This document shows positions 6,150-62,064 of a stretch of 64,000 nucleotides of DNA, in pieces. Location of the stretch: assembly GCA_964543795.1 (NCBI GenBank), contig CAZIZN010000004.1:189176-253175 (forward strand). Reading direction: 5' to 3'. Every line of letters starts with the position of its first letter. Position 1 is the first letter of the stretch. The notes beneath the pieces were generated by a model. It searched no databases and was not told the origin of the DNA. It was given only the letters and a program-made list of their open reading frames with translations. A program made the position numbers and the translations under genes. Source of the DNA: an uncultured candidatus Brocadiaceae bacterium. GTDB lineage: Bacteria; Planctomycetota; UBA1135; UBA2386.

Positions 6150-8615
<2,466 letters not shown>

Positions 8616-8663
8616 GGCCCGGTTGTAGGGTCCGCACGGGGCGAACGAAAGCCGCACATGGGC

Positions 8664-10118
8664 TCATGCCCAGTGGCGCGCGCGCGGCACCGCGCGACCC
8701 CAACGCAGCCGCAGCTCGGCCACCGCCGCGGCCATGGTCCGCGGCGAGTAGCCGGTCGCCTCGCCCGGCAGCGCCGGCAGGTCGGCGAGGCTGCAGGCGC
8801 CTGCCCCGAGCATCGCCATGCGGAAGGCGCCGAACGCCGTCGCCTCGAGCAGCGCCGGTCGCACCACGGGCGCGCCGAGCAACGCCGCCTGCAGTTCGAG
8901 CAGGAGACCGTTGGCGGCGGCGCCGCCGTCCACGTGCAGCGGCGCTGTGGGACCGCGCTCGCCTCGCATCGCCGTGAGCACGTCGTCGACCTGCAGCGCC
9001 ATCGCCTCGATCGCCGCGCGCACCAGGTGCGCCGCCGATGTGCCGCGCGTCAGCCCGACGATGAGCCCGCGTGCGGTCGGGTCCCAATGCGGCGTGCCGA
9101 GACCGGCGAAGGCGGGCACGAACACGATCCCGCCGCTGTCCGGCACCGAGCGCGCCACGGCCTCGGCGGAGCGCGCGTCGGCCAGGACGCCGAGCTGATC
9201 GCGCAGCCACTGGATCGCCGCCCCGCAGACCATCACGCTGCCTTCGAGCGCGTAGGTCGTGGTCGCACCGATGCGCCAGCCGACCGTCGCGAGCACGCCC
9301 TCGGGCGGAGCCGGCACGACCGTGCCGTGGTTGCGCAGCACGAACGCGCCGGTGCCGTAGGTGCACTTCTGTTCGCCGGGCAGCAGGCAGCCGTGGCCGA
9401 ACAGCGCCGACTGCTGGTCGCCGAGCACGGCGCGGATCGGCCAGCCGCGCGCCGCGATGGCGCCGAAGTCGCCGGCCGACGGCCGGATCTCGGGCAGGCA
9501 GGCGCGCGGCACCCCGAACAGCGCGCAGAGGTCGTCGCTCCAGTCGCCGGCCTCGAGATCGAACAGACACGTGCGCGAGGCGTTGCTCGGCTCGGTGGCG
9601 AACACGGCTCCGCCGGTGAGCCGGTGCACGAGCCAGCTGTCCACCGTGCCGGCGAGGAGTTCGCCGCGCTCGGCGGCCGCGCGCGCGCCGGGCACCGCGT
9701 CGAGGATCCACGCGATCTTCGCGGCGCTGAAGTAGGGATCGAGCGACAGCCCGGTGCGCTGCCGCACGAGCCGTTCGCCGCCGCGCTCCCGCAACGCCGC
9801 GAGGACGTCTGCGGTGCGGCGGTCCTGCCAGACCAGGGCGCGGTGCACGGGCCGCCCGCTGCGGCGCTCCCACACGACGACCGTCTCGCGCTGGTTGGTG
9901 ATGCCGACGGCGGCGATCGCAGGCTCGCCCGCGGCGCGCCAGGCCGTGTCGACCGCGCGCAGTTGCGCGGCGAGGATCTCCTCGGCGTCGTGCTCGACGC
10001 AGCCGGGGGCGGGGAAGTGCTGCCCGAACTCGTACTGACCCGCGCCGCGGACGCTGCCGTCCGCGGCGAAGACGAGGGCACGACTGCTCGTCGTGCCCTG
10101 ATCGAGGGCGAGGAACAT
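8664..10118 (-). CDS. glpK: Glycerol kinase
   Basis: ALDQGTTSSR, GITNQRET, WQDRRT, PYFSA, GDQQSALFG, KCTYGTG, VDGGAAAN motifs. Confidence 0.95.
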   Translation of the reverse strand: MFLALDQGTTSSRALVFAADGSVRGAGQYEFGQHFPAPGCVEHDAEEILAAQLRAVDTAWRAAGEPAIAAVGITNQRETVVVWERRSGRPVHRALVWQDRRTADVLAALRERGGERLVRQRTGLSLDPYFSAAKIAWILDAVPGARAAAERGELLAGTVDSWLVHRLTGGAVFATEPSNASRTCLFDLEAGDWSDDLCALFGVPRACLPEIRPSAGDFGAIAARGWPIRAVLGDQQSALFGHGCLLPGEQKCTYGTGAFVLRNHGTVVPAPPEGVLATVGWRIGATTTYALEGSVMVCGAAIQWLRDQLGVLADARSAEAVARSVPDSGGIVFVPAFAGLGTPHWDPTARGLIVGLTRGTSAAHLVRAAIEAMALQVDDVLTAMRGERGPTAPLHVDGGAAANGLLLELQAALLGAPVVRPALLEATAFGAFRMAMLGAGACSLADLPALPGEATGYSPRTMAAAVAELRLRWGRAVPRARHWA

Positions 10119-10167
10119 GCACCGATTCTCGCGCCGCGCGCCGCGGCGGAGAACAGCGGACGGGTCC

Positions 10168-10421
10168 CCGGAAGAAGAACAGGGCGCATGGCCCCCACGC
10201 GACTCCGCGTGGAACCGAATCCGGCGTTCCTTTGCCTGCCCCAAGTTGGAGGAACGTCGGCGCGGTCCTGTAGGCCATGCGCCCGGAAGAAGGGTCGAGT
10301 GCACGGGCCGCGCAACACACGCGGCAACCGCTTCGGCGTCTCCCTTGCCTGCCCCAAGTACGGGAGGCGCCGCAGCGACCATTTCCGTGCACTCGTCGCG
10401 ACGCCGTGGCTCTCGCCACGG
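10168..10421. ncRNA. Candidate novel tandem structured RNA (two ~114-nt multi-stem units); strand unresolved, minus slightly favoured
   Basis: Perfect outer stems 10182-10193/10273-10284 and 10296-10306/10385-10395; identical TTGCCTGCCCCAAGT at 10232-10246 and 10345-10359; CCGGAAGAAG at 10168 and 10283. Confidence 0.65.
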
Positions 10422-10515
10422 TGACGCGGGATGCGATCACCGACGCGCAGCGCGCGCGCCGGACGGGAACGAGTTGTGCAAAGAACGACGAACGGGGACG
10501 CGAAGACGGAAACGT

Positions 10516-12162
10516 TCAGCGCGCCGACAACACACGGAGGCGCAGCACGGATCCGCCTTCGCGGGCGTCCAGGTCGAGGTAGCCGATGTGCCGTTGCGGA
10601 ATGCGCGACGCGTCGAACTCGGCACCGCCGAGTTGCGCACCGATGCGTTCGAACAACGGCCCGAGATCGAGATCGAAGAGTCCGGTCACGCGATCGCCGC
10701 CGATCGACGCGACCGCGGCCGCCACCGCGGCATCGCGCTTGCCGCGGGCGCGTCCGGCGCGGCGATGCTCTTCCTGCACGAGCCACAACGTCTCGGGCTC
10801 GAAGCCGACCAGCACGGAGTCCTCGTGCACGGTGATGCAGGCGTCGATGCCGCCGCGCGGGCTGCGCAACTCGAGCACGTCGGGGGCGCCGCGCACCGCC
10901 GGCTCGACGATGCGGCCCATGCCGTGCAGTTCCGTGGCGCGCCGCAGGTCCTGGAACAGGTCCGACGCTGCCTTGCGGCTCTTCGCCCGCAACGAGTAGA
11001 CCGAGACGACCTCGGGAACTCCTTCGGCGCGACGGAACAGCAACTGGACCGTGCCGCCCGTGCCGAGCCGGCCCATGACGTTGCGATCGAAGTCCAGGCC
11101 GAGGTCGCGCAGCGCGTGCGCGATCGCGTGCAGCATGCGGCCGCCGCGCGGCGAACGCTGCGCGATCGAGGCGAGGTCCACCGACACGACGAGCCCGCCG
11201 AGCCCGCCGGCGGGCAGCGTCGGCAGCAGCGACCGCGCCGGCACGGCCTGCGTCGCCGCGAACCAGCCGTCGATCATCGGGCCGTCGCCCATGCGGTCGC
11301 CGGGGTGGCGTTCGACGGCATGCCCGCGCCCGCCGGCCGCATCGAAATCCAGCAGCACCGTGGCCGCGAAGCCCTGGCCCTCGGCCGCGAGCGACGCCAT
11401 GACGGCGCGCGCCCCACCGAGGCCCGACCACGACAGCACGAACTGCGGCACGCCGTCGCCGAGCGCCTCGACGCGGTGCGCCAGCCGCTGCCAGTCGCCG
11501 TAGACGAGCAGCGCGCCCGGGCCGGCCGCGAGGCGCTTCCTGAGTCCGACGAAACGCTCGTCGGCGGACAGCACCCGGCGCGGGGCCGCCGACGTGGCTG
11601 CCGGGGCCGGTGCGAGCAGTTCCTCGAGGGCGGTGCCGTCGTTGGCGACCAGCAGGTCGCGACCGACGACGGCGAGTTCGACCCGTCGTCCCGGAGCCGC
11701 CGCGGCGGCCGCCTCGCGCAGCGCGAAGGTCTGGTGCGCACCGAGCCGACGCTGCGGCACGGCGAGTTCCGGCCCCGCCAGCAAGGCACCGAGGCGGCCG
11801 GCCTCGTCCGGCTGGAGACGCGCACGCAGCACGAGCAGCGGCTGCCCGTCGGCGGGCAACACGGAGGTCAGCGCGAGTTCGACCTCGCCGGCGCTGCGCG
11901 CGAGCACACCCCGCACCAGGGCGAGGGCTCGCCCACCGGCATCGCCGCCGGCGGTCGGTTCGCCGCGGCCGAGCAGCACGTCGAACGCCGGGTCGGCGAG
12001 CAATCGATGCACGGCCCCCGAACCCCCGCTCCTCGCCCCCGCCGACTCGCCGTCGAGTGCGACGTAGACCATCGGCGCCTCGATCCGATCGACGAGCCGG
12101 AGCTCCTGCGCCGACACGGCGGCGACGAGCAGCAGGCCCGCGAAAGGGAGGCGCGCGATCAC
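10516..12162 (-). CDS. Secreted hypothetical protein, DUF3352-like
   Basis: Signal peptide ending AVSAQ; modules such as LSADERFVGLRKRL...LLVYGD resemble DUF3352-like planctomycete proteins (family assignment tentative). Confidence 0.7.
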   Translation of the reverse strand: MIARLPFAGLLLVAAVSAQELRLVDRIEAPMVYVALDGESAGARSGGSGAVHRLLADPAFDVLLGRGEPTAGGDAGGRALALVRGVLARSAGEVELALTSVLPADGQPLLVLRARLQPDEAGRLGALLAGPELAVPQRRLGAHQTFALREAAAAAAPGRRVELAVVGRDLLVANDGTALEELLAPAPAATSAAPRRVLSADERFVGLRKRLAAGPGALLVYGDWQRLAHRVEALGDGVPQFVLSWSGLGGARAVMASLAAEGQGFAATVLLDFDAAGGRGHAVERHPGDRMGDGPMIDGWFAATQAVPARSLLPTLPAGGLGGLVVSVDLASIAQRSPRGGRMLHAIAHALRDLGLDFDRNVMGRLGTGGTVQLLFRRAEGVPEVVSVYSLRAKSRKAASDLFQDLRRATELHGMGRIVEPAVRGAPDVLELRSPRGGIDACITVHEDSVLVGFEPETLWLVQEEHRRAGRARGKRDAAVAAAVASIGGDRVTGLFDLDLGPLFERIGAQLGGAEFDASRIPQRHIGYLDLDAREGGSVLRLRVLSAR

Positions 12163-12310: not shown

Positions 12311-13903
12311 TCAGCCCGACGGGCGATCGCCGAGCTTGCCGTAGAGCGTGCCGCGGCTGATGCCGAGCAGGCGCGCCGCCTCGGCCTTGTTGCCCCGCGC
12401 CGCGTCGAGCGCCCGCGCGATCGCCCAGCGCTCGACGCTCGCGAGGTCGAGCGCGGGCAGCGGCCCACCGTCGTCGCGCGGCAGCGCTTCCTCCGCCGAC
12501 AGCTGCGACGGGTCGAGTTCGCCGTCGCCGGCCAGCGCCACGAGCCGCTGCAGTTCGTTCTCGAACTGCCGCAGGTTGCCGGGCCAGTTGCGCCGCCGCA
12601 GCGCGTCGAGCAGCGCCGGGCTCGCGCGCCGCGGCGCGGCCGCGCCGGCGGCCGAGGCACGCGCGAGGAAGTGGTCGACGAGCCGCGGGATGTCTTCGCG
12701 ACGTTCGCGCAGCGGCGGCAGCCGCACGACGACGACCGCGAGCCGGAAGTAGAGGTCCTCGCGCAACCGCCCCTCGGCGATCGCACGCAGCGGGTCGCGG
12801 TTGGTCGCCGCGAGCACGCGGACGTCGAGCGGGAACTCGCGGTCACCGCCGACGGGACGCACCGACCGCTCTTCGAGCGCACGCAGCAGGCGCGCCTGCA
12901 CGTCGATGTCCATCTCGGTGATCTCGTCCAGGAACAGCGTGCCGCCCGCCGCCTGGCGCAACAGCCCGACCCGGTCGCGATCGGCGCCGGTGAACGCGCC
13001 CTTCTGGTGACCGAACAGCTCGCTCTCGAACAGGCTCCTGCTGATCGCCGCGACGTTGACCGCGACGAAGTCGCCGCGCGCCCGCGCGCTGGCGAGGTGC
13101 AGCGCGCGGGCCGCCAGGCCCTTGCCGGTGCCGCTCTCGCCCGTGAGCAGCACGGGCAGGTCGCCGCGCGCGACGCGGTCGAGCACCCGCAGCGCGCGCA
13201 GGAACGCCGGCGCCTCGCCGACCATCGTCGGGAACGGGTGTTCGAGATCGGCGCGCGACAGCCGCTCTTCGGGCGCGGCGAGCACGGCGGCCTGGGTCTC
13301 GACGGTCGCGTGCAGCTCGCGGTTCTGCGCGGCGAGCGCCTCGGCCTGGCTGCGGTTCAGGGCGAGCAGCCGGTGCAGGTGCAACACGATCGCCCCCTGA
13401 TCGGCGAACGCGAGCAGCCAGGGCACGTCCCGCTCGGTGAACGCGCCGGCCTGGAAACGATGATCGAGGTACAGGCAGCCGAGCACGGCGTCGCCGACGC
13501 GCAGCGGTGCAGCGAGCACGGAACGCAGCCGCAGGTCGGCGACGCTCTGTGCGGCGCCCAGTTCGCCGTCCTGCGCATCCTCGCTGAAGACACCCTCGCC
13601 GCCGAACGCCCGCTCGAGGATCGTCGTCGACAGCTTGCGCTCGGGGTTCGCGACGGCTTCCCGATCGACGCTGCGCGCCACCTCCACGGTCCAGCGCCGC
13701 GCTCCTTCGCCGCGCGTAACCAGGAAGCCGCGCTCGGCGCCGAACAGACGGACCGCTTCGTCGACGAGCACCGTCAGCACCTGCTTCTGCCCCTCCGCCG
13801 CCGCCAGCTGACGATTGAGCCCGAGGATCGCCAGCCAGCGCGCGCGCTCGGCGTCGCCGCCGTCGCCGCGCAGCCGCTGCAGGAAGTCGGCCCAACGAGC
13901 CAC
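12311..13903 (-). CDS. Sigma54-dependent Fis-family enhancer-binding protein (GAF-AAA+-HTH)
   Basis: GAF domain, [63 protein letters not shown]; GTG start at 13903. Confidence 0.93.
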
Positions 13904-13904
13904 G

Positions 13905-14258
13905 TCAGTTCGCCCCCGCCGCCGCGAGCAGCGCACGCAGGACGATCGCCTCGGCGTGCCGTTCGTGGCGATCGAGGCCGCCGTGCGCGGCGATCGCCGC
14001 ACGCAGCCGCGCGCCAATCTCGCCGACCGGCGCACCGGGCAACACCGCCGCGGCCAGCGCCGCCACGGCCGTCGCGGCCGGGCAGGCCGCCGCCTGCCAG
14101 CGCACCTCGGTGAGAGCACCCGCCGCGACACGCACGTGCATCACGACCTCGTCGCCGCACACGGGGTGCTCGGCGCGGCCGGTGCCGACGCCTTCGCCGG
14201 CGAGTTCGCCGGCGCCCTCGCCGCGCAGCAACAAGAGGCGCAGTGGTCCGGCGACCAT
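13905..14258 (-). CDS. IscU/SufU/NifU-N-like small scaffold protein
   Basis: HPVCGDEV and [10 protein letters not shown] resemble the NPxCGD and GCA motifs; no third Cys evident. Confidence 0.7.
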
Positions 14259-61711: not shown

Positions 61712-61832
61712 GCCCGCAGCATCGCCCATCGGCAGGCACGGCGGAAGAGGGCGTTGCGCCGGCGCGCGGCGGCGGCTACAAGGCTCGTCCCCGATCTCGG
61801 CCCAGGCGCCTTCCGGCGAGCAAGCTGAGCAC

Positions 61833-61923
61833 GGAGAGGTGACCGAGCGGCTTAAGGAGCTCGCTTGGAAAGCGAGTGCAGCCCAAAAGGTTGCCGGGGG
61901 TTCGAATCCCCCCCTCTCCGCCA
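61833..61923 (+). tRNA. tRNA-Ser(GGA)
   Basis: GGAGAGG/CCTCTCC acceptor stem, anticodon arm CTCGC-TTGGAAA-GCGAG, long variable arm, TTCGAAT loop, encoded CCA. Confidence 0.95.
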
Positions 61924-61939: not shown

Positions 61940-62064
61940 CGCGAAGGTGGGGTCCGCCGGGTCCCGAGCAAGGGGACGGCGTGAACCTGGTCAGGTCCGG
62001 AAGGAAGCAGCCATAAGCGTGCGGTTCCTTGTGCCCGGGGTGCCTGGTGGGTTCCACCTTCGCG
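61940..62064 (+). ncRNA. ffs: Signal recognition particle RNA (small bacterial SRP); ends approximate
   Basis: Helix 8 signature GTCAGGTCCGGAAGGAAGCAGC within a long stem closed by 61940-61950/62054-62064. Confidence 0.93.

Follow-up and report, generated by a model that had tools for sequence, protein, structure and literature searches.

A minus-strand structured RNA family with an invariant G-rich apical loop upstream of glpK and lon in uncultured Planctomycetota

What do the two similar repeats that lie upstream of glpK and lon encode in the genome of an uncultured planctomycete? We examined a 64,000-nt stretch of DNA (hereafter the window; contig CAZIZN010000004.1, positions 189,176 to 253,175) from an uncultured candidatus Brocadiaceae bacterium whose genome has ~70% GC. 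The intergenic region in question spans 396 nt (10119-10515), and its flanking genes all lie on the minus strand. A preliminary description, made from the letters of the window, had noted two units of the same architecture here and proposed either a tandem aptamer controlling glpK-lon or a small RNA with several loops. The features it reported are all present where it had placed them: the units form direct repeats spaced 113 and 115 nt, their outer stems are perfect (12 bp at 10182-10193/10273-10284 and 11 bp at 10296-10306/10385-10395), and the 15-mer that they share, TTGCCTGCCCCAAGT, occurs exactly twice in the window (10232-10246 and 10345-10359), where the chance expectation is 0.07 even with two mismatches permitted. 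The region folds far better than shuffled sequences (z = -6.5 for the plus strand and -3.3 for the minus strand), and its location upstream of glpK-lon stands. We are highly confident that the repeats represent a real and new family of structured RNAs, read from the minus strand, in one clade of uncultured Planctomycetota. This family falls within the terminator-embedded regulatory RNAs or the multi-loop noncoding RNAs (ncRNAs). Each complete unit, or module, is a predicted three-way junction in which a closing helix (P1) encloses two hairpins (P2 and P3), and the apical loop of P2 is invariant.

Homologues with covarying stems were found at ~27 independent loci from uncultured Planctomycetota, each carrying one to three modules (loci are given L numbers where they must be told apart). 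When gene contexts were assigned by tblastn, 13 loci proved to have lon directly downstream without glpK, ~13 have glpK followed by lon, and one has glpK without lon. Wherever the flank is available, the RNA lies upstream of, and is co-oriented with, glpK-lon, lon, or glpK. The contigs that carry the closest GlpK proteins have an intergenic region of 260-600 nt upstream of glpK, all of them with the motif in the glpK-sense orientation. A pattern scan of metagenomes with the loop and the conserved P3 of unit 1 recovered 67 stretches, ~24 of which are real; the remainder lack a closing helix and receive no covariance model score. A scan of genome contigs for two bare loops 95-125 nt apart was less productive, in that only L021, L087, and L105 are real among the matches listed and most are due to chance. 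Viral contigs yielded no match to the RNA. Dispersed copies of the kind expected for a repetitive extragenic palindromic (REP) sequence or a miniature inverted-repeat transposable element (MITE) are absent, given that the window holds just two adjacent copies and the homologues occupy a single syntenic position.

The family can be recognized with high specificity. Covariance model R1 matches only family loci among 193 loci (1.36 Mb), with full hits at 51-70 bits, compared with 22 bits for the best chance match. Three hits score lower, at 35-47 bits, and correspond to the overlap-clipped first units of L006 and L144 and to a divergent unit of L196. Because the flanks built into R1 overlap from one tandem unit to the next, cmsearch reports one unit per locus unless sub-ranges are searched.

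The preliminary description had argued for selection on RNA structure from stems that diverge yet stay paired beneath invariant loops, and covariation among the homologues agrees. In an alignment of 39 units and 162 columns, 94% of cells are paired, and 43 of the 48 base pairs have changes on both sides. Compensatory cells number 388, whereas shuffled alignments give 124, and the observed values exceed those of all 500 shuffles; in slid controls, pairing falls to 33-46%. This alignment was assembled segment by segment from the constrained fold of each unit; plain MAFFT could not align the hypervariable P2. It counts against these pair counts that the alignment is fitted to each sequence's own predicted fold, and we therefore added an alignment-free swap test in which helix strands were paired with cognate or non-cognate partners. 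Cognate strands are the more stable for both P1 (-24.9 versus -15.6 kcal/mol) and P2 (-23.2 versus -12.8 kcal/mol), so that joining the 5' strand of one unit to the 3' strand of another costs ~10 kcal/mol in either helix. Swaps that match the cognate pair in stability make up a median fraction of 0.03 (P1) and 0.00 (P2).

The preliminary description had considered the G-U evidence bearing on the coding strand to be mixed. This is true of the window's own units, because these two are among only 3 of the 39 distinct units that fold slightly better as antisense, but the homologous loci fix the strand as minus. The sense (glpK/lon) strand is more stable in the other 36, with a mean difference of -6.4 kcal/mol, and the sense-strand helices of the 39 units contain 167 G-U pairs versus 18 A-C 1x1 mismatches. 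Scored with a covariance model derived from homologues, unit 2 of the window reaches 71.1 bits (E = 1e-16) and unit 1 reaches 51.7 bits (E = 4e-14) on the minus strand, versus 17.7 and 7.4 bits on the plus strand. In addition, P0, a hairpin that precedes the modules, has stable sense-strand tetraloops in many of 25 loci (GCAA three times, GAGA, GCGA, UUCG twice, and UCCG twice). A plus-strand RNA was rejected on these fold energies, G-U and A-C counts, model scores, and tetraloops.

Read 5' to 3' on the minus strand, the element comprises an upstream box, a gap of ~10-60 nt, P0, unit 1, a pyrimidine linker of ~10 nt, and unit 2. It therefore contains the two units previously described but is larger, with a conserved 5' hairpin and a terminator-like U/C tract after each unit. 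The box, GUUCUUUGCACAAC (YUCUUUC..ACAAY; 10473-10486), follows the preceding gene's stop codon at a short distance, and 45-100 nt separate it from unit 1. A similar box occupies the equivalent place in most of 25 loci, while L155, L166, and L184 have the U/C-rich part without ACAAC; the box is a candidate -10-like promoter element of the RNA. In the window, P0 (10397-10428) is an inverted repeat forming a 14-bp hairpin with a GAGA tetraloop, located 1 nt before P1 of unit 1. The preliminary description had correctly reported a hairpin with this loop on the minus strand, but had underestimated its size, as the arms extend over 10397-10410 and 10415-10428. A hairpin at this position is predicted in nearly all 25 loci with differing sequences (the automatic fold of L158 is offset), and its general form is a two-part hairpin of ~32 nt and variable sequence, 0-2 nt before P1.

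Both modules of the window were modeled by constrained minimum free energy folding. Unit 1, the 5' module (10285-10395), for which pair counts also support the fold, consists of P1 (10395-10385 with 10306-10296), the joining segment J12 (10384-10379), P2 (10378-10362 with 10344-10328, closing a loop at 10361-10345), P3 (10325-10307; GCCGCGU-GUGUU-GCGCGGC), and the tail ACCCUUCUUCC (10295-10285). Unit 2, the 3' module (10170-10284), has P1 (10284-10272 with 10194-10182), J12 (10271-10268), P2 (10267-10250 with 10231-10213, loop 10249-10232), P3 (10212-10195), and a U-rich tail, UGUUCUUCUUCC (10181-10170), that was flagged by a terminator-pattern scan. The apical loop of P2 carries the invariant UGGGGCAGGC in unit 1 (10347-10356) and in unit 2 (10234-10243), and this sequence is identical in 39 of 39 aligned units (columns 69-78). 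The motif that had been taken for a 5' element of each unit is, on the minus strand, CUUCUUCCGG, the U/C tail that follows the helix; the remaining motifs, previously given in plus-strand letters, read CGGUU and ACUUGGGGCAGGCAA.

Across units, P1 is a GC-rich helix of 10-18 bp with the core GG[AG][UC]GCA[UC]GG. The P1 cores of the window are partly palindromic (GUGCAC, GCAUGC; 10296-10306/10385-10395 and 10182-10193/10273-10284). The junctions vary in length and sequence, with 0-9 nt in J12 and 0-3 nt in J23. P2 has 15-17 bp with bulges and a sequence that is wholly different between lineages, and its apical loop of 13-21 nt combines a spacer rich in A, C, and U with the invariant UGGGGCAGGC, after which an A is present in almost every unit. 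P3 is a helix of 5-8 bp stacked on the 3' strand of P1 (with 1 nt between them in one unit), and its loop is GYGUU in unit 1; unit 2 has GANGUA or a loop similar to GUGU. Several further pairings were considered and rejected. An antiterminator formed by the 3' strand of unit 1 P1 and the 5' strand of unit 2 P1 would have 9 of 10 pairs, with a single A-C mismatch in every case, and is trivial because the two helices share a GCAUG core, without independent support. A pseudoknot between loop and tail was discarded because GGGG pairs with any pyrimidine 4-mer, the tails are out of register, and an invariant loop precludes covariation. A loop-complementary GCCUGCC, present 5' of unit 1 in the L001/L002 clade alone, was treated as a chance or clade-specific feature.

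Each P1 helix is followed by a pyrimidine-rich tract. The 10 nt after P1 contain 51% U, 32% C, and 5% G, versus 21% U in the units overall, and in the three-way-junction modules at the 3' end of each array, U accounts for 6.3-6.7 of 12 nt, in runs of ~4 and of as many as eight consecutive residues (U8). The tails of the window's own units are weaker U tracts (CUUCUUCC). A stable, GC-rich helix and an adjoining U-rich tract, as expected for an intrinsic terminator, are thus both found on the transcribed strand, and the predicted anatomy of the module is that of an intrinsic terminator with an embedded recognition loop.

Divergent members of the family reveal which of these parts are retained. 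L198 has three tandem plain hairpins (2205-2405), each with the loop CAAUGGGGCAGGCR and a CU-rich tail, upstream of glpK and without lon downstream; this hairpin is a minimal form of the module. L196 combines one three-way junction with a simple hairpin whose loop is degenerate. Simple hairpins with near-miss loops (CUGGGCAGGU, UCGGGCAGGC) and subsequent U-rich tracts are found in L196 (2418-2485) and L130 (~9680-9740). The second unit of L133 (~10232-10372) retains P1, P3, and a U6 tract, and its invariant loop has been replaced. From the L133 unit and the L198 hairpins, therefore, the feature that is always kept is a stable helix with a U/C tract, on top of which the invariant loop sits. Gene content varies as well. 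L105, which has lon without glpK, matches the window in the sequence of unit 1 P1, and its Lon is more similar (87% identity) than that of any other locus. In L197 and L008, glpK and lon are present and the RNA element is absent; given these loci and the spread of contexts, the adjacency of glpK and lon is older than the RNA. The RNA has been retained upon loss of glpK, and in L198 it is present without an adjacent lon.

No match to a known RNA family was found, as the preliminary description had anticipated. When the whole window was searched against Rfam 15 at gathering thresholds, only signal recognition particle (SRP) RNA and tRNA were recovered, both elsewhere in the window. At E<=10, the region 10000-10650 yielded no more than chance hits of 15-24 bits, below the cut-offs of 40-112 bits, and nine homologous loci gave no Rfam 15 hits. 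The literature that we searched on glpK, lon, and Planctomycetes motifs holds no mention of such an RNA. A T-box leader was rejected, as there is no Rfam T-box hit at E<=10 and the architecture differs. Targets of ANTAR proteins are two adjacent hairpins with hexaloops bearing A1 and G4, the second of which overlaps a terminator. This candidate was also rejected, as the P3 loop of unit 1 is the 5-nt GUGUU and only some unit 2 P3 loops are hexaloops (GANGUA), which do not present A1 and G4.

How might such modules act? We tentatively favor, at somewhat less than an even chance, the reading that they are conditional terminators whose efficiency depends on a factor that recognizes the loop. Transcription would start shortly upstream of P0 and proceed into the modules, where formation of the P1 helix beside the U tract would terminate it, such that the modules would control how often transcription continues into glpK and lon. 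How efficiently this happens would be set by a trans-acting factor that recognizes the invariant, G-rich loop. A protein is a likelier factor than a metabolite because the conserved part is a loop and not a pocket, hairpin-only versions exist, and the downstream genes have no common pathway.

Several observations weigh against conditional termination. The tails of internal modules are poor U tracts, with 4.1 U in 12 nt and runs of 2.2. We found no conserved alternative pairing that could serve as an antiterminator, and the last module lies a variable ~55-250 nt from the start codon, with a spacer that is not conserved. Moreover, glpK and lon are preceded by promoter-like elements of their own. 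A pattern search found CUUUCG-like-N17-18-(CC)CTACAAC-N6-8-ATG before lon in 17 loci; in the window, CUUUCG-N18-TACAAC (8627-8622)-N6-ATG is present on the minus strand. In every motif-bearing locus, a NANNAT-like hexamer or CTACAAG is located 6-7 nt before the glpK ATG. The NANNAT-like hexamers in the 11 loci listed include GAGAAT, CATGAT, GACAAT, and CACCAT, as well as one TAGAAC that ends in C; L196 and L198 have CTACAAG in place of NANNAT. No Shine-Dalgarno sequence is evident at the glpK starts of the window and 12 other loci. A related sequence, TTGCGC-N17-TACAAG, was seen ~50 nt upstream of the tRNA gene of the window (61833-61920; region 61760-61833), which is followed by SRP RNA (61955-62052). 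Because CTACAAG also occurs before a tRNA gene, a promoter signal is favored over a translation signal. Judged by its conservation, the geometry upstream of lon and glpK looks like that of promoters for leaderless mRNAs, and the recurrence of TACAA-type hexamers suggests that they could be the -10 consensus of this lineage. There are only eight TANAAY hexamers in the 64-kb window, too few to gauge how general this signal is before genes. If these promoters are read rightly, glpK and lon need no leader, and the RNA may be a separate transcript whose 3' end lies at its last module. The 'CCC-TA' of the -10 region in the lon element is vaguely sigma-32-like.

The possibility of a separate transcript leads to a close rival, which we rate only slightly below conditional termination and which agrees with the second option of the preliminary description. 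In this view, the element is a stand-alone, trans-acting ncRNA of ~150-300 nt (P0 and the modules) with its own promoter (the box) and terminator (the last P1 and its U tract). Its one to three G-rich loops, perhaps together with the pyrimidine linkers, would titrate a protein by the logic of CsrB/RsmZ or Y RNA, or would seed pairing with target RNAs, and lon would lie nearby because the two are co-regulated or because Lon is a partner of the RNA, not because of control in cis. The conserved promoter-like hexamers that lon and glpK possess at leaderless distance are consistent with this proposal, as is the CTACAAG before the tRNA gene, which favors a promoter signal. The best U tracts reside on the last three-way-junction module, as would fit the 3' end of a discrete RNA, and a conserved box lies just past the upstream stop codon. 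Furthermore, the copy number of identical loops varies from one to three in a sponge-like manner, and the RNA persists whether glpK or lon is the next gene. However, at all ~27 loci the RNA directly precedes glpK or lon in the same orientation, although the neighbor on its other side changes, and such a fixed position is the usual signature of cis elements. In addition, neither a complementary target sequence nor a gene for a partner was identified, the box is a putative promoter, and the internal modules are terminator-like too.

Other explanations appear less probable. A tandem small-molecule riboswitch, in which each junction would be an aptamer for glycerol, glycerol-3-phosphate, or a stress metabolite with a terminator in P1, is improbable, despite the presence of covarying three-way junctions upstream of genes on the sense strand, complete tandem units that each have a terminator-like helix, and a metabolic gene downstream in half of the loci. 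A precedent for an aptamer within a terminator exists in the hydroxymethylpyrimidine pyrophosphate (HMP-PP) riboswitch, as described in PMC6478431. Yet J12 and J23 vary in length and sequence, no conserved internal loops resemble a pocket, and the only invariant block is in the apical loop of P2, which is also present on the plain hairpins of L198 and has hairpin versions in L196 and L130. Nor is there a consistent association with a single pathway, as the contexts include lon, glpK-lon, and glpK, and the motif is intact before the protease gene in the 13 loci without glpK. The glycerol or glycerol-3-phosphate aptamer of the preliminary description is accordingly unlikely. An even smaller chance attaches to a constitutive array of terminators or insulators that would shield the glpK and lon promoters from transcription of the upstream gene, X, with a partnerless loop that serves folding or stability. 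Terminator-like anatomy, co-directional genes on either side, and promoter-like elements just downstream would all suit such an array, but termination needs no invariant loop of 10-11 nt, and this loop has been kept although every stem has turned over across lineages. With P0, a three-way junction, and conserved loops on P3 (GUGUU, GANGUA), the element would be over-engineered for this task, and the RNA is kept where the upstream gene differs (L001, L002, L087, and L133). We consider it very improbable that the repeats act as DNA, whether as a REP, a MITE, a repeat resembling a bacterial interspersed mosaic element (BIME), protein-binding inverted repeats, or a recombination site. Inverted repeats, partly palindromic cores (GUGCAC, AUGCAU), and tandem copies recall such elements, but the strand asymmetry of G-U versus A-C pairs, energies, and tetraloops is strong, the stems covary freely with no binding sequence kept, and the repeats occupy a single locus in the 64-kb window and one syntenic position in homologues, with no match in viral contigs.

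If the modules are conditional terminators, which protein might read the loop? Lon itself is the most economical candidate, albeit a speculative one with a low probability of being correct. Binding of Lon to G-rich single strands that is modulated by protein substrate is described or cited in PMC2275097. The invariant loop resembles such ligands in being a predicted single-stranded GGGG...GG element that is physically linked to lon. Unlike the ligands in that evidence, which concerns mitochondrial and other Lon proteins with DNA or G-quartets, the loop described here is an RNA known from its sequence, and it cannot by itself form an intramolecular quadruplex. Binding of Lon to the loop would couple transcription of lon to proteolytic load. 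It is conceivable, though unlikely, that Lon or another proteostasis factor binds the loops upstream of its own gene and frees them when occupied by substrate, thereby setting termination or titration and, with it, expression of lon. The modules of L198, which have no lon downstream, weaken a strictly cis form of Lon autoregulation.

Among known regulatory systems, the element resembles tandem riboswitches and attenuators, such as those for thiamin pyrophosphate (TPP) and glycine, in that complete units with covarying stems are arranged in series upstream of genes. It also resembles the HMP-PP 'thiS motif' riboswitch, in which, as described in PMC6478431, a sensing structure lies inside a terminator helix with a U tract. 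Unlike the tandem riboswitches, its conserved bases are apical, its downstream genes point to no one metabolite, and it has hairpin versions.

A second point of comparison is attenuation by proteins. In such leaders, a protein that recognizes a hairpin or loop determines whether a terminator forms, and in Bacillus one of these proteins, GlpP, also regulates glpK. The systems of GlpP (glpFK and glpD leaders), PyrR, LicT/SacY with the ribonucleic antiterminator (RAT), and ANTAR proteins share with the planctomycete element a terminator in the leader and, as a candidate here, a protein that reads a loop. They differ from it in where the recognition loop sits, as the planctomycete loop would be part of the terminator and not of an antiterminator that competes with it. 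There is no similarity in sequence or structure to RAT, the PyrR box, or the ANTAR dual hexaloops, and no gene for a cognate regulator is linked. Unlike the GlpP-controlled glp leaders of Bacillus, moreover, this RNA persists in loci without glpK. The sponge RNAs CsrB and RsmZ contain repeated GGA loops, and Y RNA is encoded beside rsr. Like these RNAs, the element has one short single-stranded motif repeated in hairpin loops in lineage-dependent copy number, next to the gene of a candidate partner. Multiple GGA loops are not found, as the repeated motif is UGGGGCAGGC(A); the sequence UGGGGCAGGCA takes the place of GGA, there are only one to three copies, and the modules are also terminator-like.

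If functional, this is an orphan family of structured RNAs with unusually clean covariation in Planctomycetota, for which, to our knowledge, almost no regulatory RNAs have been described. It would likewise tie an RNA structure to control of the protease Lon, which is central to quality control and about whose regulation little is known outside Proteobacteria and Firmicutes. The design is distinctive, with a terminator-like helix around a three-way junction, an apical loop as the sole invariant part, and one to three repeats, and it could serve as a model for terminators that are read by factors. The invariant loop is also a ready handle for pulling down a partner. For this uncultured lineage, promoter-like signals are suggested in the form of TACAAC-type hexamers at leaderless distance. 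Should the speculative reading involving Lon or another proteostasis factor prove true, the element would sense proteolytic load through RNA-based feedback and would represent a new class of protease-linked regulatory RNA; we know of no described bacterial counterpart for such a sensor.

The neighboring genes are arranged as follows, all on the minus strand. Between unit 2 and the start of glpK is a predicted GC-rich hairpin (10120-10158) that includes GAGAAU, the NANNAT hexamer 6 nt before the ATG. The first gene 3' of the RNA is glpK (8664-10118), with an ATG at 10118 and an open reading frame for a glycerol kinase of 484 residues (MFLALDQGTTSS...). Its homologues have 57-75% identity, contain PF00370 and PF02782, and are named glycerol kinase, the best ones coming from metagenome-assembled genomes labeled Planctomycetota. 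The next gene, lon (6150-8615), encodes ATP-dependent protease La (821 residues; Pfam Lon_C, LON_substr_bdg, and AAA). Based on the start and the conserved upstream elements, its true start is the ATG at 8615, not the GTG at 8657 that was given as the start of the open reading frame. Lon proteins from loci without glpK (L151, L156, L180, L166, L178, and L087) have long Asp/Gly/Ser-rich, low-complexity N-terminal extensions; these differ greatly in length and contain GDSG/GGSG repeats, and the extension of the window's Lon is short.

Upstream of the RNA, the neighbor is the gene for protein X (10516-12162; 548 residues), which in the window copy has an N-terminal hydrophobic, signal-like segment and which has no Pfam match. 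This is also the upstream neighbor in most loci, L196 and L198 included, and in L001, L002, L087, and L133 a decarboxylase-NifU cluster takes its place. Two genes upstream of the RNA is the gene for a protein with GAF, sigma-54 activator, and helix-turn-helix regions (12311-14131). The presence of this enhancer-binding protein gene prompted us to consider a sigma-54 promoter, which was rejected since direct reading of the leader gave no TGGCAC-N5-TTGC. The order of the GAF/sigma-54 enhancer-binding protein gene, X, and the RNA is kept in L004, L006, L007, L105, L130, L151, L159, L166, L178, L180, L196, and L198. Members of the X family are ~490-650 residues long, have no Pfam match, and end in ...RIRVLSxR, with distant members being 29-39% identical.

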